64,000 bases of DNA from Alphaproteobacteria bacterium. GTDB lineage: Bacteria > Pseudomonadota > Alphaproteobacteria > Rs-D84. Numbering within the stretch: the first letter of the stretch is position 1; every line of letters starts with the position of its first letter. Below the pieces are notes generated by a model that had not been told where the DNA came from, did not search any database, and saw only the letters and a list, made by a program, of their open reading frames with translations. The DNA lies in the NCBI GenBank assembly GCA_009783855.1, contig WRCO01000002.1:25038-89037 (forward strand). The letters run 5' to 3'. Shown one piece after another: positions 7,948 to 53,530 of the stretch. The translations under genes were made by a program, and so were the position numbers.

Positions 7948-7959
7948 GGTTGGCAGACG

Positions 7960-8190: not shown

Positions 8191-8200
8191 GGAACAGACA

Positions 8201-8443: not shown

Positions 8444-8454
8444 GAAGTATAAAT

Positions 8455-8817
8455 ATGGACCAGGCAAAACAAAAGGGACGGGTGATGAATTTCAAGCCGC
8501 TGCACAACATACGGGATTATTTTGTCGGGTCTTATGACTTTGTAATCGGCGATTTGGACACCCTTCGGTATTGGCACCTGAGGAAATTTGACAAGGATTT
8601 CGTGTTTTATAACTCGGAAAAACCCAATATTTTTACTGTGCTTAAAAATTGCGGGGAAAAATCCATGATGTATGTTGCCGCGGTTTTGGCCCCCGTGCTG
8701 TTGCCAATGGGTTATTGTGGATGGAGAATCGAGAATAGGGTTTCAAAAAAGAAAAGAGAGTTGCCGACATTCAAAGAATTTCTGCAGCGCATTATTGAAG
8801 AATCCAGATTCAGATAA
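8455..8817 (+). CDS. small membrane protein, paralog 4 (FKPLHNIRDYFVGSYDF...AAVLAPVLLPMGY)
   Basis: Tandem paralog, longest copy. The start could be the internal M at 8485. Confidence 0.4.
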   Translation: MDQAKQKGRVMNFKPLHNIRDYFVGSYDFVIGDLDTLRYWHLRKFDKDFVFYNSEKPNIFTVLKNCGEKSMMYVAAVLAPVLLPMGYCGWRIENRVSKKKRELPTFKEFLQRIIEESRFR

Positions 8818-17749: not shown

Positions 17750-17872
17750 TCGTGGTTGGTGGCCCGTGCCGGTGGTTCGTGTCCGAGGTCGTATTCTAGT
17801 ACAATGGAGAATAATATCAAATTATTTTTATAAATCCGAACCACCGGCCGCCAACACGAACACGAATCACGA
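17750..17872. repeat. family A palindromic repeat (long copy) abutting the lptG start codon
   Basis: cgtggttggtggcccgtgccggtggttcgtg ... ccgaaccaccggccgccaacacgaacacgaatcacg. The arms are reverse complements with an AT-rich centre. Confidence 0.7.
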
Positions 17873-29261: not shown

Positions 29262-29966
29262 ATGAAATCCATGCTTGAAAAGTTCAAAAAGAACAAAACC
29301 GCCGTGCCGGCCCAGAAAAAAACACTTTCGGACCATGCGGAAGACGCGCTGTACCGCGAAGTTAATGAGGAAGTACAGGCACAGCAAATGTACGATTTCA
29401 TAAGAAAATACCTGCGCGTTCTTGTTGCGGTTGCGGCGCTTGCGGTCGTGGTTGTTGTCGCGCTTCAATTGTCAAAGGCTCAAAATGCCAAAACTTTGCG
29501 GCAATCCGCATCGGCATACGAATCGGCCATAATGATGCTTGACGCGGGCAACCCGGTTGCCGCCCGCGAAGCGCTTGTCCGCGCGGCAAGAAGCTCAAGC
29601 GGCGGTATGGCTGACCTTGCATTGTTTTCGGCCGCAAGGATAGATTTGCAAATGGGCGACAGCGACGCAGGAGTGGCAAAACTTGAACAGCTTGTCCGGA
29701 ATGGCCGGACGCGCGATTTTCGCGACCTTGCGCTTGTCAAGCTTGCCATGATGAGGGCGGAACACATGACGGGACGTCAGTTCGAGCAGTTCCTTGCCCC
29801 CGTACAGACCAAACGGTCGCCGTTCTATTACACCGGCATGCTTTTGGTTGCGAAAAAATATCTCTCTGTCGGCGAAGATGTCGCCGCCCGCAGATGGCTT
29901 GACAGAATTACGTCCGACCGCGGCGCCCCGCCAAGCGTTGTGGCAGAGGCGGAAATGTTGAGGTAG
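29262..29966 (+). CDS. YfgM-like membrane-anchored TPR protein (UPF0070)
   Basis: Cytoplasmic N-terminus, one TM (VLVAVAALAVVVVVAL) and a periplasmic TPR-like domain. Immediately upstream of the bamB-like gene, as in the yfgM-bamB arrangement. Confidence 0.55.
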   Translation: MKSMLEKFKKNKTAVPAQKKTLSDHAEDALYREVNEEVQAQQMYDFIRKYLRVLVAVAALAVVVVVALQLSKAQNAKTLRQSASAYESAIMMLDAGNPVAAREALVRAARSSSGGMADLALFSAARIDLQMGDSDAGVAKLEQLVRNGRTRDFRDLALVKLAMMRAEHMTGRQFEQFLAPVQTKRSPFYYTGMLLVAKKYLSVGEDVAARRWLDRITSDRGAPPSVVAEAEMLR

Positions 29967-29971
29967 AACAA

Positions 29972-30066
29972 AGAGCATAGGGCACAGATAAGTGTTGAAA
30001 TTAAAAAGATATTTTACGGATATTAAAAAAGCATCTATGCTCTATGCTCTATGCTCTATGCTCTTG
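29972..30066 (+). promoter_or_regulatory. conserved 5' cassette E1 plus (CTATGCT)x4 heptamer tract preceding the bamB-like gene
   Basis: cacagataagtgttgaaattaaaaagatattttacggatattaaaaaagcatct followed by atgctctatgctctatgctctatgctc. Near-identical copies are at 38930-39003 and 53440-53530; a diverged copy is at 40925-41040. Confidence 0.7.
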
Positions 30067-32708: not shown

Positions 32709-32744
32709 AATAACAGTTGTTAGCTGTTAGTTGTTAGTTTTTAA
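32709..32744. repeat. family B repeat at the 3' flank of the T4CP gene
   Basis: cagttgttagctgttagttgttagttttt. Confidence 0.65.
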
Positions 32745-34980
32745 CTTCCCTTGTCTCCCCCGTCCCGTAATCGTATACTTTCGGCACGCCGGGGTACCCC
32801 ATTGTCGCGTGGTGCGACGGGACAAGAAATTCGGGCAACGCCGCCGCGCGCGGAATATCGGTAAGTTTGAACAAATCTTTTTCTTTGCCCGGCCAGACCC
32901 ACGGGACGTCCGCCTCAATCGGGCGATGCGGATAGCCCTGTAAAATCACAAGAAGTTTATCCGAATCAAGTTTCATTATGTCCATCGGACTGTAAAGCAG
33001 CGCCGCTTCTTTTTTGTCGTCTTTTACTTCGCCGGTTTTGTCGTCCGTCTTTTCTTCAATCTTTTTCTGGTATCCTATCATCCTGCTGAACTTGTCCGCA
33101 GTGTCGTAACTGTTTTGACGGAACACAAGTTTCACCGCTGTTGTCGATATTATGGTTTCGGCGGCGTCCGCACCGTATTTGTCCCGGATTTGGGCAATAT
33201 CCTGACCGATTATAAGATACGAAACCTGTTGTCCGCGGCCAAGGTCGGGCCCCTGAATCACAGCCTGCATCTTTTGCATTTTCGGCATTTCGTCCAGCAC
33301 GAACAAGACCGGCGTCGGCCCCAGTTTTTGACCGGCATGCGTATCTTCCGGCTTGTTGGTAAGAAGAAACGCCGACATAAGTTCGATGAATATCGCGCTT
33401 ATCGGATTCAATGCCTCCGCATCGACCATGTTTATGGAAAGGTAAACGGTAACCGGCTCCCACTTTCCCGTCTTTTTGTTTTTGATTCCGCGCAAATCGG
33501 AAAAATGAAAATCGGAATGCGACGTGCGGTTGCGGACGGCCGCGTTTCGGAAAATGTTAAGCCCCGACAATGCCGTCGACATAATCGACCCGCGTTCCTT
33601 GTCCGGCGTGTTTGCAAGCTGTGTAAGTTCTTGGATGGACCGGTGCGCGTATCCGTATTGGCGCGCCTCTTCGACCGCGTCGTGGAACAAATCCTTCATC
33701 GGGTCGGCCATCATCACCATCTGGTCGCCTTGTTTGCGCCTGTCTTCCAATTCTTCGGCGATTCTTATCTGGTTCGTGGTAAGCCAGTCAAGAACCATGG
33801 AAAGCGACGCCTCTTTGCCAACCCATGCGGCCGGTATATTCGCCCAGGTTCCGACGGGAACATAATTCGCGGCCGACAAAGCGCCCGTGGAAAGCATATG
33901 CCGCGCCGCCGCCGCGTTCGGGTCCCGCATCATCGCATACCGTTCGTCAAGAAGGACTCTGTCGGTCTGGTCGAATGTTCCGGAATCAAGGCGCGATTTG
34001 AAATAATCGTTCCATTTTGCGCGCTCTACCTTTGACACAATAAATTGTAAGAATCCGGTAAGCGCCGCGCGGCCCGTAGTGACCCAGTGCGGGTCGGCGG
34101 ACGACGTCGCCTTGTCCGCGACAAGCGTCGCGCAAATAGAGTCTATATAAAGGTCGCGTTTTTCTTGAACAAACGGCACGTGTTCGGGCGACAACGGATT
34201 CCACGACGGATAATATATGCCGCGTTCCGGGTCGTCTTGACCCGCCCAGTTTATGATGAACACCGGACCGATGCCCGCGCGGTACCCGCTTGTCAAAGCG
34301 TCCAATTCAGGTTTGGGGTCGTTGACAATCATGGACACCTTATCGCATTTGAATATGGTCGGCATAACTATGCCGCGGGATTTACCGGACCCCGGCGGCG
34401 CGACGCAAAGCGCGGACAATGTTTCGTCCAGCATAAGGAATTTCTTTTTGAATTTGCCAAGGACGATTATAAAACCGCCGAACAGGCCTTCTTTGTTCTT
34501 TTTGTCGCGGCCCATGCCCTTTACATCATTTTCGTTCGCCTTGCGGGAAGAATCGTCCGCCCACCAGTTCGTGCCATGCGGATTAAATTCGCCAAGGAAC
34601 GTCGGAATCGTAAGCAAATGATACGCGATTATTGCAAACAAGGGCGTAATAACCGGTAAATCGGGGCGAAGGACCGCGCGGACAAGCCATGCCGGAATCT
34701 CTGCAAAAATGCGCAGACCGAACGTATGCAGAATCTGGTCGAAATAAACATGAAGCCACGTGATTGTCGCCGGGCTCCACCCGTACCGCCATATATGCTC
34801 GATTGCAAAGGAAAGTCCGAACGCGGCGATGGATGCAAACCAGGCAAGGAAAAGATAACGGTATTTCCAGAACACAAGGCGCATGTGCGTCCGTTTGTCG
34901 CCCTTGTACGCGTCGGACGAAAAGATGCCAAGGCCCTTGCCTTTACCGCTTACAGATAAGATGTTGAACTTTGCAACCAT
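32734..34980 (-). CDS. type IV secretion coupling protein (VirD4/TraG/TrwB family ATPase), orphan
   Basis: 748 aa. N-terminal TM pair. Walker A LCVAPPGSGKSRGIVMPT (compare VirD4/TraG xAPTRSGKGVGxVIPN). Walker B PVLFVLDEMPKM. No other T4SS genes are adjacent. Confidence 0.6.
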   Translation of the reverse strand: MVAKFNILSVSGKGKGLGIFSSDAYKGDKRTHMRLVFWKYRYLFLAWFASIAAFGLSFAIEHIWRYGWSPATITWLHVYFDQILHTFGLRIFAEIPAWLVRAVLRPDLPVITPLFAIIAYHLLTIPTFLGEFNPHGTNWWADDSSRKANENDVKGMGRDKKNKEGLFGGFIIVLGKFKKKFLMLDETLSALCVAPPGSGKSRGIVMPTIFKCDKVSMIVNDPKPELDALTSGYRAGIGPVFIINWAGQDDPERGIYYPSWNPLSPEHVPFVQEKRDLYIDSICATLVADKATSSADPHWVTTGRAALTGFLQFIVSKVERAKWNDYFKSRLDSGTFDQTDRVLLDERYAMMRDPNAAAARHMLSTGALSAANYVPVGTWANIPAAWVGKEASLSMVLDWLTTNQIRIAEELEDRRKQGDQMVMMADPMKDLFHDAVEEARQYGYAHRSIQELTQLANTPDKERGSIMSTALSGLNIFRNAAVRNRTSHSDFHFSDLRGIKNKKTGKWEPVTVYLSINMVDAEALNPISAIFIELMSAFLLTNKPEDTHAGQKLGPTPVLFVLDEMPKMQKMQAVIQGPDLGRGQQVSYLIIGQDIAQIRDKYGADAAETIISTTAVKLVFRQNSYDTADKFSRMIGYQKKIEEKTDDKTGEVKDDKKEAALLYSPMDIMKLDSDKLLVILQGYPHRPIEADVPWVWPGKEKDLFKLTDIPRAAALPEFLVPSHHATMGYPGVPKVYDYGTGETREVKN

Positions 34981-35745: not shown

Positions 35746-36054
35746 TTATTTTTTATTAAGCTGTGTCAAAAAGTCCGGAAAGCTTTCGTCTTCGTCTTCG
35801 TCTTTTTCTTCCGTTGCCGGTTCCTGGCTTTTGGTGCCGTTTTCCTTTCCGTTGCCGTTTCCGCGGACGCCGTCGATTTTGGTCTGTTCTTCGGATACTA
35901 TGCGGCCGTAATGTTCCGCCATTTGCAACAGTCTTTCGCGTTCGATTTCATCCGAAGTCTTGCGCGCTTGGTCAAGATATTGCCGGCGTTTTTCGCGCCA
36001 GCGGTGGCACCGTTGAATCATAAGTCCGGTCGACATTTGATTTTTTTTATACAT
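35746..36054 (-). CDS. DUF4167-like small basic/acidic protein
   Basis: ERERLLQMAEHYGRIVSEE resembles the DUF4167 AEHYxQHAEHYFR core. Basic N-terminus, acidic C-terminus. Confidence 0.4.
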   Translation of the reverse strand: MYKKNQMSTGLMIQRCHRWREKRRQYLDQARKTSDEIERERLLQMAEHYGRIVSEEQTKIDGVRGNGNGKENGTKSQEPATEEKDEDEDESFPDFLTQLNKK

Positions 36055-36160
36055 ATGGAAAACTTTTGTTTAATGCGGGGGGCATACAGTTGGTCAGTTT
36101 TAAGTTTTATGGGGGTAAATCCGTTAAACGCACCGTGATTATAAACCGTCCTAAAACCGT

Positions 36161-36189
36161 TTGCAATAAATTTTTTAACCGACTAGAAT
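36161..36189 (+). promoter_or_regulatory. sigma70-type promoter TTGCAA-17 nt-TAGAAT directly upstream of Tad-like gene 1 (possibly a leaderless transcript)
   Basis: TTGCAA 36161-36166, TAGAAT 36184-36189. The ATG at 36196 is only 6 nt downstream. Confidence 0.45.
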
Positions 36190-36195
36190 TCGGGC

Positions 36196-37644
36196 ATGGA
36201 GAGAACGACAAACCAAAGCAGCGGAAATTTCATGTTACAGGCCTTGCTTGCGCTTGCGCTTGTCATCGCGTTTATGCCCATGCTTGTGCGGAAAATGGCG
36301 CGCTCGGGGTTCGATGCGGAAATGAACGCGGCCATGCAACAGGTTAATTCCGCGGTGCCGGCCGTGCGCGCGTTCGGGCGGGATAATTACGATTCGCTTC
36401 AATTCGGCGTCCAGATATACGAAGGACGGGATTTCCAAGACGCTTTGGAACCGTACGGGCTTCCCATCGGGTTTGTGCCGCGGACGCCCTTGGGACAGAA
36501 CATCGTCATGATTACAACGCGGAACGACAGCGAGACCATCGCATGGCTTCGTATTATGGGCGGGCGCGCGACCGGGATAGAAAAGGCCGAACTTGCTTTG
36601 CGCATCGGATTCTGGGCGGCGGATGTGGACGGCAACAGGCTTTCCGGCGCGACCGGCGGATGGGACAAGGATATGACGGAATTCGGATACAGGCCGGCAA
36701 GCGGCGCCATATACGTCCGCGTGCCGCTTTCGCATGAATTTTCGGACCTTCTTTCCACCACCGCGCGAAATATCGAAGCCAACCGGATGCACGTAAACCT
36801 TAACATGGGCGGCCGCGATGTGCGCGCCGCGCGCGACATAACCGCACGCGAAGGGAATTTCCGTTCGGTGCTTTCCGGCGATTTCATCCTTTCCGGGGCG
36901 GAAGACGGCCGGCGCCAAAGAAACAGATTTTCCGAACTTAACATACGCCGCGCTCATTTTCAATCAAGGGACGGTTCGAACGCGCTTAACATATCGCGCG
37001 GCACGATGAATGCCCGCTCCGTGGTTGCGCCGACCGTATCCAGATATGGCGACCCGGGTAATCTTACAAGCGAATCCGTATCCGTGCACAATTTTGCGAT
37101 GGCGGCCGGACGCACGGGGTTTATGGGCCCCACCGTATGGGAAGTGCGCGGCGATGCGATATTAAGCAATGTGACGCTTAACACCGAACGCGTGGAGGTC
37201 GGCGGATATATAAACGCCACGCGCGGCCAGGACGTGTTCGTGGATGAAGACGAGCTTACCTTTAATCAAAAATCCGGAATAGAAACCAATATCGTATCGG
37301 CGACCGCGCTTACCCTGCGCGACCAGACTTCGAACGTTCTGCTTGAAGGAGGGTCGGGACCGGTAATCATCGACATCCGGCCGGCGGGGGTTTCCGTGTT
37401 GCCCGACGTGCTTTTGGCCGGGATAAACAACGACGGCATCGCGGCGCTTGCAAGCCCGTCGGACGAATCAGACATAATGACCGCATGCAGAGGCATAATC
37501 GGCGGCCTTCCCGGAGTGAACGCAAGGTACGAGCAGAATTCGCTGGCGCAGAATATAATATGCCGGTTTGTGTTTTGGCAAAGGCTTGAACAAAGAATAG
37601 ACAAGATGCAATGCATACTTGATAGAGGGGAGGAGAATTGTTAA
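36196..37644 (+). CDS. TadG-like large pseudopilin-family protein (prepilin-type N-terminus G|NFMLQALLALALV; beta-helix-like C-terminal repeats)
   Basis: N-terminus QSSGNFMLQALLALALVIAFMPML resembles the TadE/G-like (RGNxAxxFAL) class III signal. Shares the paralog motif MHVNLNMGGRDVRAARDITA with the next two genes. Confidence 0.45.
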   Translation: MERTTNQSSGNFMLQALLALALVIAFMPMLVRKMARSGFDAEMNAAMQQVNSAVPAVRAFGRDNYDSLQFGVQIYEGRDFQDALEPYGLPIGFVPRTPLGQNIVMITTRNDSETIAWLRIMGGRATGIEKAELALRIGFWAADVDGNRLSGATGGWDKDMTEFGYRPASGAIYVRVPLSHEFSDLLSTTARNIEANRMHVNLNMGGRDVRAARDITAREGNFRSVLSGDFILSGAEDGRRQRNRFSELNIRRAHFQSRDGSNALNISRGTMNARSVVAPTVSRYGDPGNLTSESVSVHNFAMAAGRTGFMGPTVWEVRGDAILSNVTLNTERVEVGGYINATRGQDVFVDEDELTFNQKSGIETNIVSATALTLRDQTSNVLLEGGSGPVIIDIRPAGVSVLPDVLLAGINNDGIAALASPSDESDIMTACRGIIGGLPGVNARYEQNSLAQNIICRFVFWQRLEQRIDKMQCILDRGEENC

Positions 37645-38923
37645 GGCGTATATGAACCTGATAAAAATGATTTTCACCGGAACAGACAGCGCGCCCCGCC
37701 TTACGTCTTGCGGCGACGAACGCGGCGCAAGTCTTCTTGAAACGCTTCTTGCCATCGGGCTTGTCGCGGCGATGGCGCCTTTTGCGTACAACCGCGTGCT
37801 TGACGTAAGCCGCGATATAGCCGACGTCGCCGCCGCGCGGCGCATTCATAATTGGAAGGAAGCCGCCAAGGGATTTATCCGCGCAAACCAGATGGATTGG
37901 GAGGACGATGCGATTTTTGAGCTTTCCGAACGCGACCTTGTCGCGATACGGGCGCCGGACGAAGGAAAACAGGCCATCTTTCCATACGCCGCGTTTATTG
38001 AAAAATTCAGTCATGCGGGCGGCACGACCATAGAGGCGTATATTCTGTTCCCCGGCGAATTCGACGGAATCCGTATGCACCGCATCGCGCACCATCTTGG
38101 CGCGGACGCCGCCGTCGCGGGCGACGCGCAAATCGCATTTTCCGCAAGCGGCGGCTGGAGCATAGAATCGGACATATTGGAAGAAAATGATATTGTGTTC
38201 CGCGTGTCCGTAAATATGCCGATAGACGATTCATACGCGTTCATGCACCGGGTGGATACCGGCGACGAAAGGCTTAATACCATGGAGCGTGACCTGTCCA
38301 TGTCGCGCAACGACATAGTCCATGCGGGCGCGGTTAACGCAGGTCTTCTTGATTCCAAAATGGTCGGTGCATGGTTTGCGGGCGGCGGTGCATTTTCCGC
38401 GGACGAAGCCGTATTCCCCCAAGGCGCCAATGTCGACGGCGGCGGAGTATCGTTCGCGGCGGTCCGCGTTGTGGGGGATATTATCGGTTTTCGTAATATA
38501 CATGCGGGCATATTCGCGGGCGGCGGCGGGGCCTTGAACTGGTCCGCTCAGGGGAATATAATCGCCGACCGGGTGAATATAGCCGAAGCGGTTCACGTTG
38601 GAAGAAACATGACCGTAAGGTCTCCAAACGTCCGAACGGTTTCCGGATTCCTTGGCATAAGCGTGCATTCTCTGGCGACCCCGTTTGTATCCACCGAAGA
38701 ATTGCGGTTTGCGGACGGCTTTGGGCTTTCAATTTCCAACGAACTTTCGGCAAGCTTTACCGACGGGCCGTTAAGGCTTGGCAACTGGGCGTTTCCGCGG
38801 ACACCTGCGCCAAGATTTGCGGACCTTGTCCTTACACAAGGAGGCGCAGTCAAAGGCGGCGTGCCAACAGGATTTGAAAACATAATGAGCAGGAATTGGA
38901 AGGCTTTAAGGCCAAGGGAATAA
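37619..38923 (+). CDS. TadE/G-like pseudopilin-family protein 2 (G|ASLLETLLAIGLVAAMAPF, Glu at +5)
   Basis: Prepilin peptidase-type site ERG|ASLLE. Gly-rich beta-helix-like C-terminal half (GANVDGGGVSFAAVRVVGDIIGFRNIHAGIFAGGGGALNW). Start alternatives at 37652 or 37667. Confidence 0.45.
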   Translation: MIEGRRIVKAYMNLIKMIFTGTDSAPRLTSCGDERGASLLETLLAIGLVAAMAPFAYNRVLDVSRDIADVAAARRIHNWKEAAKGFIRANQMDWEDDAIFELSERDLVAIRAPDEGKQAIFPYAAFIEKFSHAGGTTIEAYILFPGEFDGIRMHRIAHHLGADAAVAGDAQIAFSASGGWSIESDILEENDIVFRVSVNMPIDDSYAFMHRVDTGDERLNTMERDLSMSRNDIVHAGAVNAGLLDSKMVGAWFAGGGAFSADEAVFPQGANVDGGGVSFAAVRVVGDIIGFRNIHAGIFAGGGGALNWSAQGNIIADRVNIAEAVHVGRNMTVRSPNVRTVSGFLGISVHSLATPFVSTEELRFADGFGLSISNELSASFTDGPLRLGNWAFPRTPAPRFADLVLTQGGAVKGGVPTGFENIMSRNWKALRPRE

Positions 38924-38929
38924 AAATAG

Positions 38930-39003
38930 AGCAAAGACAATAGAGCGCAGATAAATGTTGAGATTAAAAAGATATTTTACGGATATTAAAAAAGCATCTA
39001 TGC
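38930..39003 (+). promoter_or_regulatory. conserved 5' cassette E2 (no heptamer expansion)
   Basis: cgcagataaatgttgagattaaaaagatattttacggatattaaaaaagcatctatgct. Confidence 0.7.
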
Positions 39004-40307
39004 TTTTGCCTGTGCGAACGCGTTCTCGCAGCGAGCGCGGCGCGACGCTTGTCGAACTTCTTCTTGCGCTGGCGGTGGCGGCGGCCATGCTTCCATTTAT
39101 AATAAGACAGGCCGACGTGCGGACCCGCCGCGCGGAAAATATAAAAGCCGCCGCCGACCTTGGCAAAGTCAAATCCGCGCTTGAAAGATATATGGAAGCG
39201 AACAGGCACGAGCTTTTCTCGACCATAAGCCGGAACGTCGTGCGCGTATCGATTTCCGATTTGGAAGAACACGGGCTTGATACCGCCAATCTTGACAAGT
39301 CGGAACAGTTCCAGATGCGCGTCGTTAAAAGCGCGGACCGGGGCGGGCGGTCGTTTCTTCAGGGCGTCGTCATCATGGACACGGAAGGCATCGCGCCGAT
39401 AAGGACGCGCGAAATCGCGGCAATCGCCGGCGGCGGCGCGGGATTCGCCGACGATAACATAACATACGGCGCATTCGGAACATGGCGCGTAAGCGCGAAC
39501 GTATGGAACGCGCGGTTTACCGACAGGTCGCTTCTTGAAGTCACGGATGCCATACGGTCGGGCGAAGAATTCCTGCGCCGCATAGTGTACGAAGACGGCG
39601 GCGCGATGATGCATTCGCCGCTTGCCCTTGGCGGGCACGACATAGTCAACGCGCGGTCGGTGTTCGCGGAATCCGCGCGCTTTGCCGAATTCGTGAATTT
39701 TACGAACGCATCGGCAAGCCGCCTTGTCATGGAAGGCAAACCGACACTTGACGGCAATGTGACCATATCCGGAGAATCAACGGTTTCGGGCGTGCTGAGT
39801 TCCGATTCACGAAGCATGGAAGTCGGCCGCATGACGGTATCCGGCACTTCGCGGTTCGGCACGGTTAATGCAAACGAATTATGGGCGGGCGATTTGGAGC
39901 TTGCCGGATTTTCGGTCCAAATTGACGAGCGTCGCCCCGCCACGCTGTCGGTCGGCCGGTCGATTGACATGACCGGCGGACGCGTTGTCTCCATGCTTGT
40001 CGCGGTGGGACACGGGGGAAGCACTACGCCGCGGCTTTTCGTAAAAGACCGGGTTGAAGACGCAAGAAATCCCGAATATTTTTGGGATGTCGCGACGGGT
40101 GAAGCCATGCTTTCCGACATATTTATCCCCGCGCTTTCCAATATGGCGCGGACCGCCATAGGCCGCGAACAGCCGGGAACGGAATCTCATCGCATCCTGT
40201 CCCAGGTTGCGAACAACGCCAACGCGACGGTCGCGGATTATATGCGCGCGCTTGCCGAAATAGAACGCCGCGTCACGGCAAGGTTTGATGCGTTGAATTT
40301 GGAATAA
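38955..40307 (+). CDS. TadE/G-like pseudopilin-family protein 3 (SERG|ATLVELLLALAVAAAMLPF)
   Basis: Class III signal with Glu at +5. Beta-helix-like repeats (GNVTISGESTVSGVLSS...MTVSGTSRFGTV). The probable true start is the ATG at 39000 (MLLPVRTRSRSERG leader). Confidence 0.45.
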   Translation: MLRLKRYFTDIKKASMLLPVRTRSRSERGATLVELLLALAVAAAMLPFIIRQADVRTRRAENIKAAADLGKVKSALERYMEANRHELFSTISRNVVRVSISDLEEHGLDTANLDKSEQFQMRVVKSADRGGRSFLQGVVIMDTEGIAPIRTREIAAIAGGGAGFADDNITYGAFGTWRVSANVWNARFTDRSLLEVTDAIRSGEEFLRRIVYEDGGAMMHSPLALGGHDIVNARSVFAESARFAEFVNFTNASASRLVMEGKPTLDGNVTISGESTVSGVLSSDSRSMEVGRMTVSGTSRFGTVNANELWAGDLELAGFSVQIDERRPATLSVGRSIDMTGGRVVSMLVAVGHGGSTTPRLFVKDRVEDARNPEYFWDVATGEAMLSDIFIPALSNMARTAIGREQPGTESHRILSQVANNANATVADYMRALAEIERRVTARFDALNLE

Positions 40308-40310
40308 TTT

Positions 40311-40426
40311 GGCGGTTGGTGGCCCGTGCCGGTGGTTCGTGGTAAAATAAAAATTTGATATTATCGCTTATTGTAATAAAATGCGAATCACGAAGGCGAG
40401 TCACCAGCCGCCAACACGGACCACCA
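40311..40426. repeat. family A palindromic repeat ending at the start codon of the zinc-ribbon protein
   Basis: ggcggttggtggcccgtgccggtggttcgtgg ... cgagtcaccagccgccaacacggaccaccaATG. Confidence 0.7.
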
Positions 40427-40924
40427 ATGAAAATAACATGCCCATTTTGCAAAATCGAATACGCGGCGAAAATCCCAAAGGGACGGCGCGCGGAATGCAT
40501 CGTGTGCGGCCATGTATGGGCGCCGGACGGCGCGCGCGGAAGGAACAGGATTCTTATGTGGCTTTTGATGGCGGCTTTCGCGCTTTTGGTGGCGGTGATT
40601 GCGATTACCATGACGACAAGGTATGCCCCGGCAAATAAGACAGAAGAAACAATCGTCGTCGAAATGACCGGCTTTCGGCGGACTGCCGCCGCGGACGGCG
40701 CGCGCATTGTCATATCCGGAAGGGTCAAGAATATGTCCGGAAGGGTTTACGGAATTCCCGACATCATGCTTGTCCTGCGGGACGATGCGGGTGAAATTGT
40801 ATTTACCCAAAGAATCATGCCGCCCGCGCCGGTTCTGGATATTGGAGAGGTTGCGAAATTTTCCCACACCCTTTCCGGCGTTCCGGAAAATGCCAGAGCG
40901 GCCCGGGCAGAGTTTGTAAGATAG
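40427..40924 (+). CDS. zinc-ribbon (MJ0042-type CxxC) + TM + DUF3426-like domain protein
   Basis: MKITCPFCKIEYAAKIPKGRRAECIVCGHVW zinc ribbon, a single TM, then a ~100 aa beta-rich domain. This architecture matches DUF3426 proteins. Confidence 0.5.
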   Translation: MKITCPFCKIEYAAKIPKGRRAECIVCGHVWAPDGARGRNRILMWLLMAAFALLVAVIAITMTTRYAPANKTEETIVVEMTGFRRTAAADGARIVISGRVKNMSGRVYGIPDIMLVLRDDAGEIVFTQRIMPPAPVLDIGEVAKFSHTLSGVPENARAARAEFVR

Positions 40925-41040
40925 CACATAGAACACAGATAATAGAACATAGATAGGAGAACGAACAAATGTTGAGATTCAAAAACAATTTTACAGGTCT
41001 TTGGAAAGCATCTGTGCTCTATGTTCTGTGCTCGATGCTC
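40925..41040 (+). promoter_or_regulatory. diverged conserved 5' cassette E3 with degenerate heptamer tract
   Basis: acagataatagaacatagataggagaacgaacaaatgttgagattcaaaaacaattttacaggtctttggaaagcatctgtgctctatgttctgtgctcgatgctc. Confidence 0.55.
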
Positions 41041-41493
41041 TTGGTCTCGGCGCGAGCCGCGCCGACATGTCCGCCGTGCGTATGCCCGTCCATACCGCCG
41101 TCGATTTTTTCGACAAGCACGGATTGGGAAGCGGTGACGGGGATGCGCCTTTCCGAATTTATGGTTTCGTTCGGTCGCGATGGAAGCATCGGCAATATCG
41201 GGTGGGAGATATATTTCCTTGACGGATTTCCATGCTATGGCCAATCGGAGACCGCGCGCATGTGGGTAAGTCCGTCGCGCCATTACGCAATCGACGGCGG
41301 CGCCGACGCGCGCGGCCGCATCACGTGCCTTTATGCGCCGAAAACCGTAAAGCTTGCATGGCGCGAGGCAAGGCGCGACGCGGCGCAGGCGCGCACACGC
41401 GGGATGGCCGTTTGCGAAGTGGAGCACAGCGGACGGAACATCACAATCCGATTGGACAAATGCGAAAGGACGGATTGGGGTGATTTGCGATAA
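40969..41493 (+). CDS. hypothetical secreted Cys-rich protein (174 aa)
   Basis: Signal peptide after the cassette leader. APTCPPCVCPSIPP motif. 8 Cys. Confidence 0.4.
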   Translation: MLRFKNNFTGLWKASVLYVLCSMLLVSARAAPTCPPCVCPSIPPSIFSTSTDWEAVTGMRLSEFMVSFGRDGSIGNIGWEIYFLDGFPCYGQSETARMWVSPSRHYAIDGGADARGRITCLYAPKTVKLAWREARRDAAQARTRGMAVCEVEHSGRNITIRLDKCERTDWGDLR

Positions 41494-41512
41494 CAACCGT
41501 AAGGCGTAAGGC

Positions 41513-42478
41513 GTGAAGCGTGAGGAATTTGTTTTCATCGTTGAAGAACAGGACGCGGGTTTGCGTGTCGATAAATTTATCGCGTCCAGATTGACCGAAT
41601 ATTCTCGTTCTGAAATCCAAAAATTTCAAATAACGAAATCTGGCGCTGCAACAAAGCTTTCCGAAAAGGTAAAGCTTGGTGAAAAATATGAAGTTGCCGT
41701 TTTAATAAATATGCCTTGTGCCTTGTGTCCTATGCCTTCTTCGAAAAAAATATCCTTGGATATTTTATTCGAAGACGACGACATCATCGTTGTCAACAAG
41801 CCGCGCGGAATCGCAATGTATCCGGGCGCGGGACGCGACAGCGGAACATTGGTGCAAAGCGTTCTGGCGCATACGAATCTGTCGTCCATCGGCGCGGACG
41901 GCATGCGGCCCGGCGTTGTTCACCGCATCGACAAAGACACGTCCGGCGTTGTGATTTTTGCAAAAACGGATTCGGCGCACCGTGCGCTTGTCACGGTTTT
42001 TTCCGAACACAATCTGGTGCGGAAATATATCGCGTTTATTTGGGGCGTGCCGAACTGGCTTTCCGCGGATATTTCCGGAAACATAGGGCGGTCGACGCGC
42101 AACCGCCAAAAAATGACTATGGTCAAAACCGGCGGAAAGCCCGCGCACACAAGCGCCGAGGCTATAAACGTCTGGCCGCGCGCGAATATTTCGGAATTGC
42201 GGTGCACTTTGGACACCGGCCGCACGCATCAGATTCGCGTCCATCTTGCCGCGCATGGTTTTCCCGTTTTGTGCGACCCGCTTTACGGGCGGGGCGGGGC
42301 GCGGCTGGGCAGTGTCAAGGACCCGGAATTATTGGAATTTCTGCGTGAAAACCGCGGTCAGATGCTTCATGCCGAAGTATTGGAATTAACGCATCCGATA
42401 ACCGGCGCGCCATGCAAATTCCGCGCTAAATTGCCGGGGGACATGAGTGCGTTGAAAGAGATTCTTAACGAAAAGTGA
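41513..42478 (+). CDS. rluD: pseudouridine synthase RluD/RluC family, with an in-frame family C heptamer repeat insertion
   Basis: S4-like N-terminus. Catalytic HRIDKDTSGVVIFAKT. GTG start. Residues NMPCALCPMPSS are encoded by atgccttgtgccttgtgtcctatgcctt (41711-41740). Confidence 0.85.
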   Translation: MKREEFVFIVEEQDAGLRVDKFIASRLTEYSRSEIQKFQITKSGAATKLSEKVKLGEKYEVAVLINMPCALCPMPSSKKISLDILFEDDDIIVVNKPRGIAMYPGAGRDSGTLVQSVLAHTNLSSIGADGMRPGVVHRIDKDTSGVVIFAKTDSAHRALVTVFSEHNLVRKYIAFIWGVPNWLSADISGNIGRSTRNRQKMTMVKTGGKPAHTSAEAINVWPRANISELRCTLDTGRTHQIRVHLAAHGFPVLCDPLYGRGGARLGSVKDPELLEFLRENRGQMLHAEVLELTHPITGAPCKFRAKLPGDMSALKEILNEK

Positions 42479-42605: not shown

Positions 42606-45488
42606 ATGCGCTCATATTCCAAACCATTTTTTGTCTTTGCATTTTTTGCAATCGGGCTTGTCATATCCGCCGATGCCGCGCCAAGGGTGTCAAGCGTAAG
42701 GCCGGGCGTCACTGTCCAGTCTGCAAGGTCGCGCATATCCACCGCCGGTCTGCAGATTCAGGCGCCTATACCGGTGGTGCCGGCGCTTCCCGTATTCGAC
42801 GGAACGTGCGCGAATCCCGCGCCGGAACAATTGGACGCGCTTCGCTGCACCCAACGGTATTTCGCATGTCTTCGCCGCGATATGGTATGCGGGGAGCATT
42901 TCGAACTCTGCGACACTATCGCCCGGTTTAATCAACGGCGCATGTTTTGCCAGGATGAGCTTGCGCGTTGTCCCGCGACCGTCATCGCCGAACTTTTCGG
43001 CAATCCGATAACACAGACGGTCGACGCGGAAAACATGGCGATGTGCGACGGCCAATGGACGGTGGTCCGCCGCGATTTCACGCCCGGCCTTCACGATATT
43101 CAATTGGCGTTTAACGCAAGCCTTGGGCCCAATCAGCTTTCCGGAATCGGCCGCGAAATATGGGCCGGCGCCGAATGGGCGGCCGCCAATACTTTGAGGG
43201 TTTGCGAATCCGTCGCGAACGCATGCCTTACCCGCGCGTGCCGGAATGAACCGCACAAGTGTTTGGGACGGCAATTCCTGTTGCCACAGGTCGCGGATAT
43301 CGCGGGCCTGGCCAGCGATGAAACGGAAAGAACCCACGCCGGAATCGCGACCGAGCGCGCCCGGTTTGTGGTGCCGCCGACATTGGTGCGGAATTATGCC
43401 GAAAACATGCTTTGGGAAGATGCGAACGTGATGCAGTATCTTCGCGCGGAATGCGGGTCTGAAATCGGAACGAACGAACATTGTTTCCGCCTTGCCAATC
43501 CTAATTCAAGATTTGGGTCATCGGACCAGTTTGAGGCAAACCTTGCATTTGATACGGTAATGACGGGTGAAATAAACCGCCGCGCATGGGTACAGGCGCG
43601 AAGCATAGAATGGCTTGCCGCCGCGGTCGCCGAAGTGGTGACGTCGTGCGAATTGGCGATTGAAGATTGCGTAAAGAATACATGCGGGTTCGGTTCGATG
43701 GCTTCGTGTTACGGCCGCGCGCGCAACCGGGACGGGTTGGTCAACCTTGCCGCAGGCACGGTAAACGATGAAATCGCAAGAATATGCAGACCGCAGATTG
43801 CCGAGAATCAGCATTGCCGCGACCTTCGCCCCGCGGGCGAAAGCGCGACCGCGGTATGGACGCATTTCTGGGGCGCGGGGGCGGAATCGACGCGCCTTTC
43901 CGCACGCCTTTCGTCGCAATTGCAGAACGCGTTTTCTGAAACGGGCAAGGCGAATATGCGCCGCGCGTGCCAGACCGCCGCAACCGCGTGCGTGCGTCAG
44001 GAATGCGGAAACGATTTCACAAGATGCCTTGTCCGCGGCGCGGACGACGACACGGGCCGCCGGGAATTCAACAACGACGGCCGGCCGATAATTGCCGGAG
44101 CCCAGGCGGGCGGATTTTCGCAAGACATGGCGCGCGGGCTTTGCATGCTTACCGTAAAGGAAATACGGGCGTGCAACGATTGGTTCGATATACAGTTTGC
44201 GGAAAGCGCGATGACCGAAAGCGGTCAATGGGGCGCGCTTGATTCATGGACCGCGGGCCGCGATGCGCGGAACGCATGGGGGGGCGATAACAGAACCCAT
44301 GTATGCGTGCTTGAACGCATGCCGATGATAGAAGCGGAAGTGCAAGCAATCGGCGATATGAGGATGTTCAGAAACCTTGGCGTTGCAGCGCGGCGGGCCG
44401 ATGTTTCCGAAAACGACTTTGGATGCGCGATGCAGGGGCGCCGGATATTCGACGAACTTATCGCGGACATCGCGGCCGAGGCACAGCAAAGACTGATAGT
44501 CGCCGCGAACGAAGCAAAGAACCAATGCCTTGACAGAAACCGCGTGCGCGGGTTACAGGATAATTTCGTATGGGCGAATGTAAGCGACCTTCGCGACAGA
44601 TTCAACCCGGTACAGGGAATCCTTGTCCAGGATATAAGGCCGACGGCGGATATTTGGGATGGATTCTGTGCGGTGCGGATTACGATGAATTCGGACGATA
44701 CGATATTGAACAATCATTTGAGCGGCGTCATGGCGTCAAGGAATGTAAGATACTTTTCGGTGGGCGATGCCGCAGTCTGCGGAAGCTGGATGTCGCAAAG
44801 CGACCTTGAAAGTCTTGAAGACGCGGTGCGTGCCGCAAACCCGCAAAGCAGGGTGCAAAAGGGTACGTCCGGTCGATGGATGGGCGCGATTACGGGCATA
44901 CTTGGCGGCGGTGCCGGCGGTATAGCGGTTGGCAATATGATAGGTAATGCGGGGGCTAGAGACAACTGTACCACCAGAGGAGGCACATCTGCTTGTAATA
45001 TGTGTGGTCATCAAATAAGAGGTACTGATGCGGGTGACGTGGATGACAGAGTTTGGTATACATGCGATATTTCCATAATTGGAAACGAAGTTGTGGTGAG
45101 TAATCGCGAAACTTCACGGGAACCACCAGTGTCCGAAGGGGGCGGCGGACGTATTGGCGATACCTTTATAGCCAGCACCTTACGCGGTTGCAATGACGCG
45201 GTAGATAATCTTTTGAATCAGTGCAACGCAGGCAACCGCAACAGGACGATGCAGCTTGGGCGACATGGAATAACGGGTGGCCTTGTTGGCGCGGCGGGTC
45301 TTGGCGCCGTCGGACTTATCGCCGGAAACCAGATAGACGTGGCAAGACAAAGAACGGCCCAAGAAGAAGAACGCCTTAAACAAGATGCCGCCGTTGCCGA
45401 ATGGTTCAATACAATCGGTTCAAGAATCAATTGCTTCATCGACGGCAGACAGGTCGGAAGATTCGGAGATCCGATAGAGATAAGGTAA
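42606..45488 (+). CDS. large secreted Cys-repeat protein (960 aa) with C-terminal glycine-zipper segment
   Basis: Signal peptide FVFAFFAIGLVISADA. About 45 Cys in recurring AxxCxxxxCxxxxxxC units. C-terminal GITGGLVGAAGLGAVGLIAG. A terminator follows. Confidence 0.45.
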   Translation: MRSYSKPFFVFAFFAIGLVISADAAPRVSSVRPGVTVQSARSRISTAGLQIQAPIPVVPALPVFDGTCANPAPEQLDALRCTQRYFACLRRDMVCGEHFELCDTIARFNQRRMFCQDELARCPATVIAELFGNPITQTVDAENMAMCDGQWTVVRRDFTPGLHDIQLAFNASLGPNQLSGIGREIWAGAEWAAANTLRVCESVANACLTRACRNEPHKCLGRQFLLPQVADIAGLASDETERTHAGIATERARFVVPPTLVRNYAENMLWEDANVMQYLRAECGSEIGTNEHCFRLANPNSRFGSSDQFEANLAFDTVMTGEINRRAWVQARSIEWLAAAVAEVVTSCELAIEDCVKNTCGFGSMASCYGRARNRDGLVNLAAGTVNDEIARICRPQIAENQHCRDLRPAGESATAVWTHFWGAGAESTRLSARLSSQLQNAFSETGKANMRRACQTAATACVRQECGNDFTRCLVRGADDDTGRREFNNDGRPIIAGAQAGGFSQDMARGLCMLTVKEIRACNDWFDIQFAESAMTESGQWGALDSWTAGRDARNAWGGDNRTHVCVLERMPMIEAEVQAIGDMRMFRNLGVAARRADVSENDFGCAMQGRRIFDELIADIAAEAQQRLIVAANEAKNQCLDRNRVRGLQDNFVWANVSDLRDRFNPVQGILVQDIRPTADIWDGFCAVRITMNSDDTILNNHLSGVMASRNVRYFSVGDAAVCGSWMSQSDLESLEDAVRAANPQSRVQKGTSGRWMGAITGILGGGAGGIAVGNMIGNAGARDNCTTRGGTSACNMCGHQIRGTDAGDVDDRVWYTCDISIIGNEVVVSNRETSREPPVSEGGGGRIGDTFIASTLRGCNDAVDNLLNQCNAGNRNRTMQLGRHGITGGLVGAAGLGAVGLIAGNQIDVARQRTAQEEERLKQDAAVAEWFNTIGSRINCFIDGRQVGRFGDPIEIR

Positions 45489-47816: not shown

Positions 47817-48036
47817 ATTAGTGGCTGGTGGCTAGTGATTAGTGGTTGGTGGTTTGTGGCTTGTGCCGGTGACTGGTACGGTTGTCTGATATATTAGACA
47901 ATCATTAATTAACGCATAAATTAAAGGCTGTCCACTATAGTGGACAGCCTTTAATTACAGGCCATTAATACGAACCACCGGCACGAGTCACGAGCACGAA
48001 TCGCCAGCACAAGCCACAAGCACAAGTCACCGGCCA
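47817..48036. repeat. largest family A composite palindromic repeat (~220 bp) with central perfect palindrome ggctgtccactatagtggacagcc
   Basis: Left arm tggtggctagtgattagtggttggtggtttgtggcttgtgccggtgactgg. Right arm cgaaccaccggcacgagtcacgagcacgaatcgccagcacaagccacaagcacaagtcaccgg. Confidence 0.7.
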
Positions 48037-48040
48037 TCAA

Positions 48041-49366
48041 TCACTTCTGAAGGCCCGCGTATGTTTTTTTGACGCCGCTCCAAAGGCCTTTGCCCTGCTC
48101 CTTTGCCTTGTTATAATATTCTTCGGGCACCTTTATACCCTTGAACAGGTTGTTTATTATCGCCGGAATCGACGTCATGAAAAATCCGATAAACAAACCC
48201 GCCATGATTATTGTAACCAGGCTTGTATTCTGAAGCGTAAGACCGTCCATAAGATACCGCGAATCATTGTTCTCCAACGCCGTTTGCAGCAAATCCGAAC
48301 CCTGGAACTCTCCGAACATCGCATTCAAAAACATCACCGCAAACACGACAAGGACGGCGACCGCAACAATGCCAACCGTATTCTTGACAAGGTCGTCTAT
48401 CATACCCTTAATCTTTTCGCCTTTGGCGCCCGGCATGACTTTCCAATCGCTGAACACCCAGCCCAAAAGAAACAGCGGAAGCATTATCAAATCCAACGAA
48501 ATCCGCATAATCGTTTCAAGAAAATACATCGGAATCGGAAGCAGCGCCATAAAAAACAAAAATATGATTATCGCACCCGCCGCAATAAGACCCATGTTCG
48601 GAAATATCGGTATATCCCACAAAAATGTGTGCATATAACGCACATCGAACGCAGAATTAAGCAGTGTCCAGCCGACAGTCATGCCAAGCCCCGTCATCTT
48701 GTGAATCCCGCCCAATTGACAGGTCAGATTATGCCGAAGCCTTGGCGAAAATATCCCGTCCGGCGAACCTGTGCTGCCTTCGGCGATTGCGGTTGCGATG
48801 ATGCAGGCTTCGAACGCATGCCTGTTTCCTTCGTCGGCAAACCTGTCCGCCGCGCCGCGGCCAAGCGACAGGCCGGTGTTGAATACAGGCTCTATCAGCG
48901 CGCCGCCGATAATCTTTGGAAGCGGCGCCAAAAGCAGCGCGCTGACAAATATAAGCTTTACAAGCAGAATACCGAATTTCTCGGCAAGCGTCCACGCGCC
49001 GCCTTCTTTTTTCATATCAACCTCGGCGCCTTTTGCGCCTATCCAGCTTGAAATGACGGTCCATGCGACCCAAACCGCCGCAAGCCCAAGCGATATCGGA
49101 ATCACGGCAAGCCCGACAGCCCTGTATATCCTTGGCACAAAGTCGGAAAGCGACGCGACAACGCCGCCGAACATGCCGCATGTCCAACAGCTTGAAAAGA
49201 ATGTAAGCGCGCCCGACATATCAACCGGCGCAAAAGACCTGTATATCGAAAATCCGATGATGCCGCCCCCAGCGGCGATGCCGCCGATGGCAAGCATCGA
49301 AATCGCCGACGCCGATAACGGAAACAGCGCAAGAAATGCGGGAAAAAGTTTTTTTAATTTATCCAC
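48041..49366 (-). CDS. polytopic membrane protein, paralog P1 of a 5-gene family (signal peptide; CWTCGMF motif)
   Basis: 441 aa, at least 8 TM. SSCWTCGMFGG. C-terminal tail KKTYAGLQK is shared with P2 and P5. Divergent from P2. Confidence 0.4.
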   Translation of the reverse strand: MDKLKKLFPAFLALFPLSASAISMLAIGGIAAGGGIIGFSIYRSFAPVDMSGALTFFSSCWTCGMFGGVVASLSDFVPRIYRAVGLAVIPISLGLAAVWVAWTVISSWIGAKGAEVDMKKEGGAWTLAEKFGILLVKLIFVSALLLAPLPKIIGGALIEPVFNTGLSLGRGAADRFADEGNRHAFEACIIATAIAEGSTGSPDGIFSPRLRHNLTCQLGGIHKMTGLGMTVGWTLLNSAFDVRYMHTFLWDIPIFPNMGLIAAGAIIIFLFFMALLPIPMYFLETIMRISLDLIMLPLFLLGWVFSDWKVMPGAKGEKIKGMIDDLVKNTVGIVAVAVLVVFAVMFLNAMFGEFQGSDLLQTALENNDSRYLMDGLTLQNTSLVTIIMAGLFIGFFMTSIPAIINNLFKGIKVPEEYYNKAKEQGKGLWSGVKKTYAGLQK

Positions 49367-49413: not shown

Positions 49414-50718
49414 ATGGCGAAGATTATGAGAGGGTTCTTTCTTTTTGCCGGCTTGCTTTTGCTGCCGCTGCCTCTGGCGGCCGCAGGAATCGTCGACGCG
49501 CTTTCGCTTGCGGGGTTTGTCCCGCTTGTCCTTGACGCGATGATGACCGTCGCCATGACCGGATACGAATTTTTTGTCGGCGACGGATTCGGCATCATAT
49601 ATATTCTTGTCTGGGGCTGGCTTGGCATTACTGTCGGTCTTTATCTTGTCCGGATGTATCTTCCTTCGAAATGGCTTGGCATGTTCGGCGTTCAGGGCGA
49701 CGACAGGCTTGCCAAAGGCGAGCTTTCCGGAATGCAAATCGGCGAAGATTTGTTAAAGCCCGGCATACGCGCAATCTTCGCGGTCTTGGTTCTTTTGCAA
49801 GTCCGGCCGCAGTATATAACAACCTTTATCGTGGACCCGTTCCTTCGTTTCGGCGCGATATACACCGACAGCATTTATCGCGAAGTTTCCCAAGGAAACA
49901 CAATGTTCGGCGCGCCCCCGGTCGTAAAGTGTCCGGAAGGGTTGCTTATGAACATAGAAAGGACAAGAGGATATATTTCCGAAGCCGGGTGCAACTTTCT
50001 TATCCAGCCGGTCGCGCAGATAACGCACGCCAACAACTTTATCATAAAGCGCGGATTCCGGATGTTGACCAGCGGCATCGGGGGGCTTATGACGCTTATC
50101 CCGCGCGGCGGGGAAAATTTCATGAATATCATAACGGGATTCCTGTTGATTACCACGTTCGTATCAAGCAACTTTTTCATGGCGCTTCTTGTCATCCAGG
50201 GGATATTCACGTTCGGAATGACGCTTGTGCTTTATCCTTTCAAAGTGCTTAAATACGTCGCAAAGCCGGCGGACGGCAAGGCGTGGTTCGACCCGTGGGA
50301 CGCTTTTTCCGATATTATCCCCGCGCTTCGCAATCTTGTCATCACCATGATTGCGTCCATGTTCATTATGCTTATCAATATCGCCATAGTGCGCGCGCTG
50401 TTCAATTGGAACGAAAGCATGTTCGTCGAAGTGGCGGGCGGAACCGCGACCGCCAACGTGCCGACGGCGGCGGCACAGGGCGCCATGGGATTCGGTCATC
50501 ATTCCGTGACGTGGCTTTCCGCGATATTGACGTTCTATCTTATGCTTCGCATTTTTCAGATGACGCGCGAAAAGCTTGCCGAATATACGTCCGGAACGCC
50601 GTCGACGCTGTATGACAAAGCGAAATCCGACGCGCAATCGTTCGTGGGCGGAACAAAAAAATATTCGGCCGGAACGTGGGATGCGTTCAAATGGGTGAAA
50701 AACAAGGTTGGTAAATAA
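49414..50718 (+). CDS. polytopic membrane protein, paralog P2
   Basis: 434 aa. Signal-like N-terminus. C-terminus GGTKKYSAGTWDAFKW. First gene of a translationally coupled P2-P5 operon. Confidence 0.4.
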   Translation: MAKIMRGFFLFAGLLLLPLPLAAAGIVDALSLAGFVPLVLDAMMTVAMTGYEFFVGDGFGIIYILVWGWLGITVGLYLVRMYLPSKWLGMFGVQGDDRLAKGELSGMQIGEDLLKPGIRAIFAVLVLLQVRPQYITTFIVDPFLRFGAIYTDSIYREVSQGNTMFGAPPVVKCPEGLLMNIERTRGYISEAGCNFLIQPVAQITHANNFIIKRGFRMLTSGIGGLMTLIPRGGENFMNIITGFLLITTFVSSNFFMALLVIQGIFTFGMTLVLYPFKVLKYVAKPADGKAWFDPWDAFSDIIPALRNLVITMIASMFIMLINIAIVRALFNWNESMFVEVAGGTATANVPTAAAQGAMGFGHHSVTWLSAILTFYLMLRIFQMTREKLAEYTSGTPSTLYDKAKSDAQSFVGGTKKYSAGTWDAFKWVKNKVGK

Positions 50719-53434: not shown

Positions 53435-53439
53435 TAGAA

Positions 53440-53530
53440 CATGGATGGAGCACAGATAAGTGTCGAGATTAAAAAGATATTTTACGGATATTAAAAAAGC
53501 ATCTATGCTCTGTGCTCTGTGCTCTGTGCT
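53440..53530 (+). promoter_or_regulatory. conserved 5' cassette E4 plus (CTGTGCT)x4 heptamer tract
   Basis: cacagataagtgtcgagattaaaaagatattttacggatattaaaaaagcatctatgctctgtgctctgtgctctgtgctc. Confidence 0.7.

Follow-up and report, generated by a model that had tools for sequence, protein, structure and literature searches.

Three consecutive genes encode large pilin-like proteins

In a 64-kb window of an alphaproteobacterial genome (the whole stretch of contig WRCO01000002.1 that was analysed), we investigated three consecutive open reading frames (ORFs) on the + strand, here named genes A, B and C. Judged by sequence comparison, their products are three ancient paralogues in the PilV / Shufflon_N family of type IVb minor pilins. 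A first-pass annotation, made from the sequence alone, had described them as tandem paralogues with TadE/TadG-type prepilin N-termini and beta-helix-like C-terminal repeats. The three same-strand ORFs are real and conserved in relatives, and they were called likewise in an independent assembly of the same genome. The genes, their N-terminal segments and their common motif are located as follows (aa, amino acids):

36196..37644, + strand: gene A, PilV-like large pilin; 482 aa; leader MERTTNQSSG; C-terminal domain with four invariant Cys
37652..38923, + strand: gene B, PilV-like large pilin; 423 aa from ATG 37652, 434 aa from TTG 37619
38955..40307, + strand: gene C, PilV-like large pilin; 450 aa from ATG 38955, 435 aa from ATG 39000
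36223..36288, + strand: Gly-1 and hydrophobic alpha1-N segment of A (GNFMLQALLALALVIAFMPMLV)
37724..37789, + strand: Gly-1 and hydrophobic alpha1-N segment of B (GASLLETLLAIGLVAAMAPFAY)
39039..39104, + strand: Gly-1 and hydrophobic alpha1-N segment of C (GATLVELLLALAVAAAMLPFII)
36787..36831, + strand: PilV-family motif of A, MHVNLNMGGRDVRAA, residues 198-212; aligns with MHTAIDMGANDLNNA of genuine PilV
38282..38326, + strand: PilV-family motif of B, MERDLSMSRNDIVHA, residues 222-236
39609..39653, + strand: PilV-family motif of C, MHSPLALGGHDIVNA, residues 219-233

The ORF of gene B opens at TTG 37619 and overlaps gene A. The start of gene A was placed at ATG 36196 and not at ATG 36232, because a conserved (Q/R)GNF lies upstream of the Met chosen by the gene caller.

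Each protein contains exactly one hydrophobic segment, which is N-terminal (residues 13-31 in A, 37-55 in B and 32-50 in C) and follows a charged leader ending in Gly, as noted at first pass. In A, the leader MERTTNQSSG runs into the putative cleavage junction SSG↓NFMLQALLAL (the arrow marks the junction), with Gln at +5. The two Glu residues described at +5 belong to B (...CGDERG↓ASLLETLLAIGLV, junction ERG↓ASLLETLL) and C (...RSRSERG↓ATLVELLLALAV, junction ERG↓ATLVELLL). According to the alignments, the Gly before the hydrophobic segment is kept in the orthologues of all three proteins. Glu+5 is invariant across the orthologues of B; for C, it is invariant in an alignment of 24 sequences and conserved to at least 90% in one of 34 sequences. 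Gln+5 of A is nearly invariant among its orthologues, and in having no Glu at this position A resembles capping minor pilins. Overall, A, B and C all carry a class III-type signal, that is, a Gly-ended charged leader and an alpha1-N segment of ~20 residues, with Glu+5 in B and C. The Pfam model N_methyl detected C alone, below threshold (E 0.007).

Profile comparison identifies distant paralogues with a common pilin domain

Pairwise BLASTP among A, B and C gave matches near noise (E 0.01-0.1). Using hhalign with profiles made from the orthologues of each protein, the families were linked with 98.5% probability for A and B (E 1.6e-15, 342 columns) and 99.1% for both A and C (E 8.6e-19) and B and C (E 1.8e-18). 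In addition, when the B profile was used to search 1.8 billion representative proteins, a member of the C family was recovered (E 2.6e-9). Because the profile matches are strong whereas pairwise BLASTP is near noise, we regard the three proteins as old, strongly diverged, and hence distant, paralogues; the relationship proposed at first pass thus holds at the profile level but not in pairwise comparison. The stretch common to A, B and C comprises the N-terminal ~240-340 residues. It includes the internal motif MHxxLxMGGxDVxAA, which had already been pointed out and is indeed present in all three.

Regarding the layout, each protein consists of a type IVb-like pilin domain, a beta-rich middle region rich in Gly, Ser and Val, and a small C-terminal domain. 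The pilin fold (a long alpha1 on an antiparallel sheet) was found in the predicted structures, and in the AlphaFold2 model of C the pilin domain is confident at residues 12-185. A Foldseek search of this model against the PDB returned noise-level matches only. The Gly/Val/Ser-rich repeats described at first pass were borne out as an enrichment (0.30-0.40) at residues ~240-420, but this stretch is not C-terminal: the C-terminus of A is a helical domain with four Cys and that of C a helical domain. Furthermore, neither a repeat unit nor a beta-helix could be demonstrated in these regions, where AlphaFold2 confidence was below 50 in the models of A and C.

The beta-rich, Gly/Val/Ser-rich middle regions would also fit membrane-tethered cytoskeletal or polymer-forming proteins with a bactofilin-like beta-helix, a resemblance that had been suggested at first pass. 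However, A, B and C gave no PF04519 match at E<=1, and the sole bactofilin fold match (Foldseek, 6rib, E 3.4, prob 0.07) was at noise level, while the pilin domains and the four invariant Cys of A argue for an extracytoplasmic location. Based on these results, we rejected this explanation, to which we attach practically no credence.

Relationship to the PilV / Shufflon_N family

Pfam assigned Shufflon_N (PF04917) to A with an E of 0.009 and 15.9 bits, which is below the threshold of 27.5 bits. In the family of A, 4/26 members matched this model (best E 1.8e-7), and one orthologue has a precomputed PF04917 match. Some members are already labelled PilV by automated annotation, as NCBI names these orthologues 'shufflon system ... 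pilus tip adhesin PilV'. NCBIfam holds no PilV model, and genuine PilV itself goes unrecognised there.

When the relative P0094 was compared with plasmids by tblastn, pilV was matched in 1520 plasmids with ~25% identity over residues 16-258. The reference PilV used here originates from a Serratia conjugative plasmid, where its neighbours encode a prepilin peptidase, a major pilin, an ATPase, a platform protein and a secretin. Comparison of this Serratia PilV with the three profiles by hhalign gave probabilities of 97.5% for A, 91.4% for C and 87.2% for B, and tblastn with the same protein found the positions of A and C directly. In the PilV alignment, the MHTAIDMGANDLNNA of PilV falls under the motif common to A, B and C. 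The B profile also reached a 1203-aa protein that passes the gathering score of Shufflon_N with 57.6 bits. A sequence search of the PDB with the A profile yielded nothing at E<=10.

The trio resembles PilV of the IncI/I2 conjugative thin pilus (R64, TP114; PF04917) in size (430-480 aa), in the class III-type N-terminus and in the succession of a pilin domain, the motif LYR...N.M.T.L.MGG..I and a Gly-rich beta region. Both can be aligned over ~215-290 residues, with an identity of about 25% at best. The Serratia PilV has no Glu+5, and neither has the product of gene A. Unlike PilV, which is a single plasmid gene, the trio consists of three divergent paralogues that are chromosomal core genes without a shufflon, Rci or adjacent pilS/pilU/pilQ/pilR/pilN, and their C-termini are conserved, not switched. 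We found no published description of chromosomal, triplicated, non-shufflon PilV-like genes, or of such genes in the order Rs-D84, to which this lineage belongs (see below).

A second trio was detected in an unrelated contig (L084:10001-20383, 47.5% GC), which encodes three tandem PilV-like paralogues of 1203, 1150 and 1092 aa. All of them show a class III-type N-terminus, KG↓G(L/V/M)L(V/L)E, and the PilV motif, and the first passes the Shufflon_N threshold. Since the three-paralogue layout recurs there, the trio looks like a unit. Many relatives of 900-1400 aa exist in the representative protein library; the gene neighbourhoods of two more long relatives (L087, L088) gave no clue.

A conserved chromosomal block in the order Rs-D84

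Scanning one genome per species, we identified 282 genomes encoding a relative of A. The corresponding records are uncultured Alphaproteobacteria or 'Rickettsiales' from termite, ruminant, rodent and human guts as well as Candidatus Enterousia, and this lineage is the order Rs-D84. Its members (Candidatus Enterousia and termite-gut relatives) have genomes mostly <1 Mb in which most biosynthesis is missing, and they are thought to depend on other cells (PMC12306168). Some block-bearing records are titled 'uncultured Muribaculaceae' or 'Bacteroides fragilis' (L010, L012, L014, L016, L035, L062), one of them being a 716-kb 'chromosome' (OZ246409.1); these titles look mislabelled.

The order DUF4167 (-) / A B C / zinc-ribbon-DUF3426 gene / p174 / RluD is kept in 76-81 of 81 loci, and beyond this block the flanking genes vary by species. 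In the window, the block is embedded in the chromosomal core among housekeeping neighbours (SspB, AccBC, PNPase, LptD/F, NusA, IF2, Der, RsmE, RluD, MraY, FtsW, MurG, Def, Fmt, TruA). Besides the trio, its members and its conserved upstream neighbour in the window are:

35746..36054, - strand: small DUF4167-like gene, divergent from A; Pfam E 1.3e-4, below threshold; upstream neighbour in 79/81 loci
40427..40924, + strand: ZitP-like gene, directly 3' of C; 165 aa; synteny in 76/81 loci
40969..41493, + strand: p174, secreted protein; with a 5' cassette (see below)
41513..42478, + strand: RluD-type pseudouridine synthase, end of the conserved block

In 51/81 loci, RluD is followed by a Cys-rich secreted protein of ~1000 aa, which may belong with the block. 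In the window, this is a 960-aa Cys-rich protein (42606-45488, +) with a signal peptide, a C-terminal hydrophobic segment and no Pfam match.

The sequence similarity to the PilV family raises the question of whether the trio represents classical PilV, i.e. the shufflon-switched tip adhesin of a conjugative thin pilus, encoded by an integrated IncI-like element that includes a VirD4-like coupling protein. A stand-alone VirD4/TraG-type coupling protein (PF02534, E 2e-52) is in fact encoded 1.2 kb upstream (32734-34980, -), among housekeeping neighbours and without adjoining transfer genes. However, as such a gene occurs within 10 kb in only 14 of the related loci, we do not count it as part of the block, which itself occupies a fixed core-genome position in 76-81 loci. 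The region 36000-41600 contains only short imperfect inverted repeats and no shufflon (sfx)-like ones, no recombinase- or integrase-type gene was found among the window ORFs scanned, and tblastn with Serratia PilN, O, P, Q, R, S, T and U gave no match in the window. In addition, the GC content of the block is not distinct from the rest of the window, and the C-termini are not variable. The absence of sfx repeats, recombinase and pil genes, together with the fixed core-genome position, led us to reject a shufflon- or plasmid-type PilV, which we consider very improbable.

The protein encoded directly after C contains a zinc ribbon (MKITCPFC-x15-CIVCGHVW), one transmembrane segment and a DUF3426-like periplasmic domain, and the zinc-ribbon-plus-Trp motif (CxxC-x15-CxxC-GHxW) was present in 73/82 sequences scanned. 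Caulobacter ZitP likewise combines a CxxC...CxxC zinc ribbon with a final Trp at its N-terminus, a single transmembrane segment and a periplasmic DUF3426-like domain, and its DUF3426 is required for biogenesis of the polar Cpa pilus (PMC5182063, PMC5182065). In contrast to Caulobacter ZitP, the protein has half the length (165 vs 311 aa) and no CpaM-like partner was seen. Because both Pfam matches are below threshold (Zn_ribbon_4, E 0.0023; DUF3426, E 0.0037), we treat the link to ZitP as a lead and not as an assignment.

A motif scan of the related loci revealed a canonical small pilin of 152 aa with the leader M(K/R)xES, followed by G↓RSLIE(V/I)IGV, and two invariant Cys. Its gene is flanked by an OmpA-like gene and dnaX and, in 56 loci and most Enterousia genomes, is ~2 kb away from gene A. 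Its profile matches the solved pilins geopilin (E 0.002) and TcpA (E 0.004), whereas hhalign of its family against Serratia PilS was negative. Example loci are:

L002:3224-3682, - strand: small pilin
L019:7459-7917: small pilin

These neighbours bear on the interpretation given at first pass, in which the trio consists of unusually large TadE/TadF/TadG-type pseudopilins belonging to a Tad/Cpa (type IVc) pilus whose genes lie elsewhere in the genome. The pili of Alphaproteobacteria are usually of the Tad kind, the N-termini are compatible with a class III signal, as found in TadE, TadF and TadG, and the next gene is ZitP-like. However, neither PF07811 nor PF13400 matched A, B or C at E<=1, and this includes A, whose SSG↓NFMLQALLAL junction is present as described but had been likened to TadG. 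Sequence profiles and folds indicate a different family, PilV and the type IVb pilins, with which the trio shares its motif, and the proteins are 2-3 times larger than TadE/TadF. Likewise, the associated small pilin, with 152 aa and a Cys pair, is unlike Flp with its 50-80 aa. From the first-pass interpretation, the class III-type N-termini hold, whereas the TadE/G and bactofilin models give way to a PilV-type assignment. A Tad origin survives for the assembly machinery only and not for A, B and C themselves, and even there we regard it as rather improbable.

Regulatory elements and further genes in the window

Three elements were located at the borders of the genes described above:

36161..36189, + strand: sigma-70-like match TTGCAA-17-TAGAAT, 6 nt before the ATG of gene A; 9/12
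38923..39026, + strand: 5' cassette copy covering the B-C spacer and the first codons of C (MLRLKRYFTDIKKASML...)
40309..40428, no strand assigned: element like a repetitive extragenic palindrome (REP) between C and the next gene; hairpin -47.2 kcal/mol, z -3.9

The sigma-70-like promoter reported before gene A does exist as a match, but with 9/12 positions it is a weak site, and the region contains 12 such matches compared to 4.9 expected. The conserved cassette attributed to the third gene was confirmed. It comprises ~105 nt, including a ribosome-binding region and the first ~25 codons (xLKRYFTDIKKASMLYALCSMLF), and its copies are 73-92% identical. Strong copies are located at 29959-30065, 38923-39026, 40937-41042 and 53429-53533 (+) and a weak copy at 14532-14448 (-), each of them 5' in a gene for a secreted or membrane protein; the five genes are otherwise unrelated. 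According to nhmmer, the cassette occurs essentially only in this genome, with one marginal match (E 1e-4) in a locus of another species (L011). It may represent a shared signal-peptide/translation-start module or a regulatory element. The palindrome after C belongs to an intergenic element resembling REPs or miniature inverted-repeat transposable elements, with three copies in the window (17749-17868, 40309-40428 and 47846-48002), in which two GC-rich arms of ~33 nt flank an AT-rich loop. A transcript end or processing site after C is possible.

Further genes without family matches were observed. Between pnp and ybaB, four tandem small genes (7699-8817, +; 76-120 aa) each encode one hydrophobic segment near the C-terminus. 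Directly upstream of mraY-ftsW-murG, five adjacent genes (48041-49366, -; 49414-50718, 50721-51920, 51920-53434 and 53460-54932, +) encode polytopic membrane proteins. These proteins (399-504 aa, 6-9 hydrophobic segments) have no Pfam match, and a relationship among them is detectable for two only. Their arrangement in tandem is reminiscent of the VirB6-like paralogues of rickettsial type IV secretion; tblastn of one of these proteins against plasmids for a VirB6/TrbL link gave no match. Moreover, in the 10 kb to the left of the window (L085:7194-8816), a gene adjoining a TolC/MFP/MacB-type exporter encodes a secreted protein of 540 aa with many leucine-rich-like repeats of the type 'FxxTxITSIPExLF' and no Pfam match.

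A putative tip complex and its alternatives

On balance, we think it probable that the joint role of A, B and C is to prime and cap a type IV filament, presumably as a heterotrimeric tip/initiator complex. The three proteins would be inserted in the inner membrane via the N-terminal helix and cut by a prepilin peptidase after the conserved Gly; they could then assemble together, most likely as a 1:1:1 heterotrimer. As A has no Glu+5, we place it as the top subunit, and its product might sit at the very tip, like GspK in type II secretion. The beta-rich parts may make up a tip structure for binding to a partner cell or substrate. Their low confidence in monomer models is compatible with an obligate oligomer, but is no proof of it. 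What the analysis demonstrates is the family, the paralogy, the pilin fold, the conservation and the synteny, while processing, the heterotrimer, the position at the tip and a role in adhesion are our interpretation.

The tip may possibly be coupled to DNA uptake or capture upstream of ComEC. A ComEC-type DNA-uptake channel is encoded at the end of the window (62926-63993, -; cut by the end, full gene L089:12028-14139, -), with 703 aa, DUF4131 and PF03772 (E 6.6e-30) and no beta-lactamase domain. The genome is said to lack nucleotide synthesis (PMC12306168).

The proposed A-B-C heterotrimer mirrors the GspK-GspI-GspJ complex and the CofB/TcpB initiator, which is homotrimeric (PMC6048534). CofB, TcpB and LngB are type IVb minor pilins that trimerise into a pilus tip initiator complex. 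The trio shows no sequence similarity to them in the PDB profile search described above. CofB and TcpB are single genes inside a pilus operon and form homotrimers, whereas a heterotrimer is suggested by the three paralogues described here, for which no such operon was detected. In GspK-GspI-GspJ and the type IVa complex FimU/PilV-W-X, the subunits mostly have about 100-330 aa and are not mutually PilV-like, and, unlike the trio, they are encoded within or beside machinery genes. The recurrence of the three-paralogue layout in a second lineage is suggestive of a type IVb tip initiator that is heterotrimeric instead of homotrimeric.

Several points weigh against such a tip complex. We searched for assembly machinery in the window, in 10 kb beyond each end (L085, L089) and in 80 related loci (1.6 Mb) using Pfam, tblastn with Serratia PilN-PilU and a scan for the GxGDxK motif, thereby covering ~84 kb of this genome; in the window, Pfam was applied to selected candidate genes, namely most of the plausible ORFs of at least 150 aa and four small ones. 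None of the components sought (assembly ATPase, platform protein, secretin, prepilin peptidase) was detected in the window, the 20 kb of flanks or the 1.6 Mb of related loci. For the window, this agrees with the first-pass annotation, as neither Pfam on the selected ORFs nor IncI-type tblastn revealed a pilus secretin, ATPase, platform protein or prepilin peptidase gene. A search of ~74 kb of this genome (window and L085) did not reveal the small pilin, and in a published survey of Rs-D84, genes for type IV pili are mentioned solely for a different lineage (PMC12306168). Furthermore, the beta-rich regions are modelled at such low confidence that a tip structure cannot be shown, the C-terminal parts are conserved as strongly as the N-terminal parts, unlike in fast-evolving adhesins, and the heterotrimer is purely something that we infer.

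The missing machinery, the fact that the same survey does not mention type IV pili for the order (PMC12306168) and the position of the trio among housekeeping genes would fit pilin-derived envelope proteins that no longer build a pilus and remain tethered to the inner membrane through the N-terminal helix, whether cleaved or not. With the classical machinery lost, these proteins would form a periplasmic or short pseudopilus-like structure, or a surface fibre made by another route. Nevertheless, (near-)invariance of Gly-1 and Glu+5 in B and C is difficult to account for unless a peptidase cleaves the proteins and they pack into a filament, and the lineage conserves a canonical small pilin that bears the same signal. 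The sampled sequence, moreover, amounts to about a tenth of one genome. We consider this main rival unlikely, though worth keeping in mind.

A further scenario would be that Rs-D84 has no classical machinery and that the trio, the small pilin, the ZitP-like protein and the adjoining secreted proteins build a polar attachment or feeding organelle by an undescribed route. This route could be a minimal, unrecognisably divergent assembly system, or a system coupled to components of type IV secretion in this lineage, namely the VirD4-like protein and the five tandem polytopic proteins. We regard this as a long shot in either form; if true, partner-dependent bacteria would dock onto other cells with such an organelle.

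The priming and capping of a type IV filament by A, B and C remains the interpretation that we favour. The PilV family, which had been known solely for a conjugation adhesin that is plasmid-borne and switched by a shufflon, is extended here to a chromosomal, triplicated and non-switching form. The mechanism by which Rs-D84 bacteria attach to partner cells and exchange with them is not known (PMC12306168). With ~4 kb of large pilin-like genes kept in a fixed block in each of the species sampled, the trio is a strong candidate for a contact apparatus in these bacteria.

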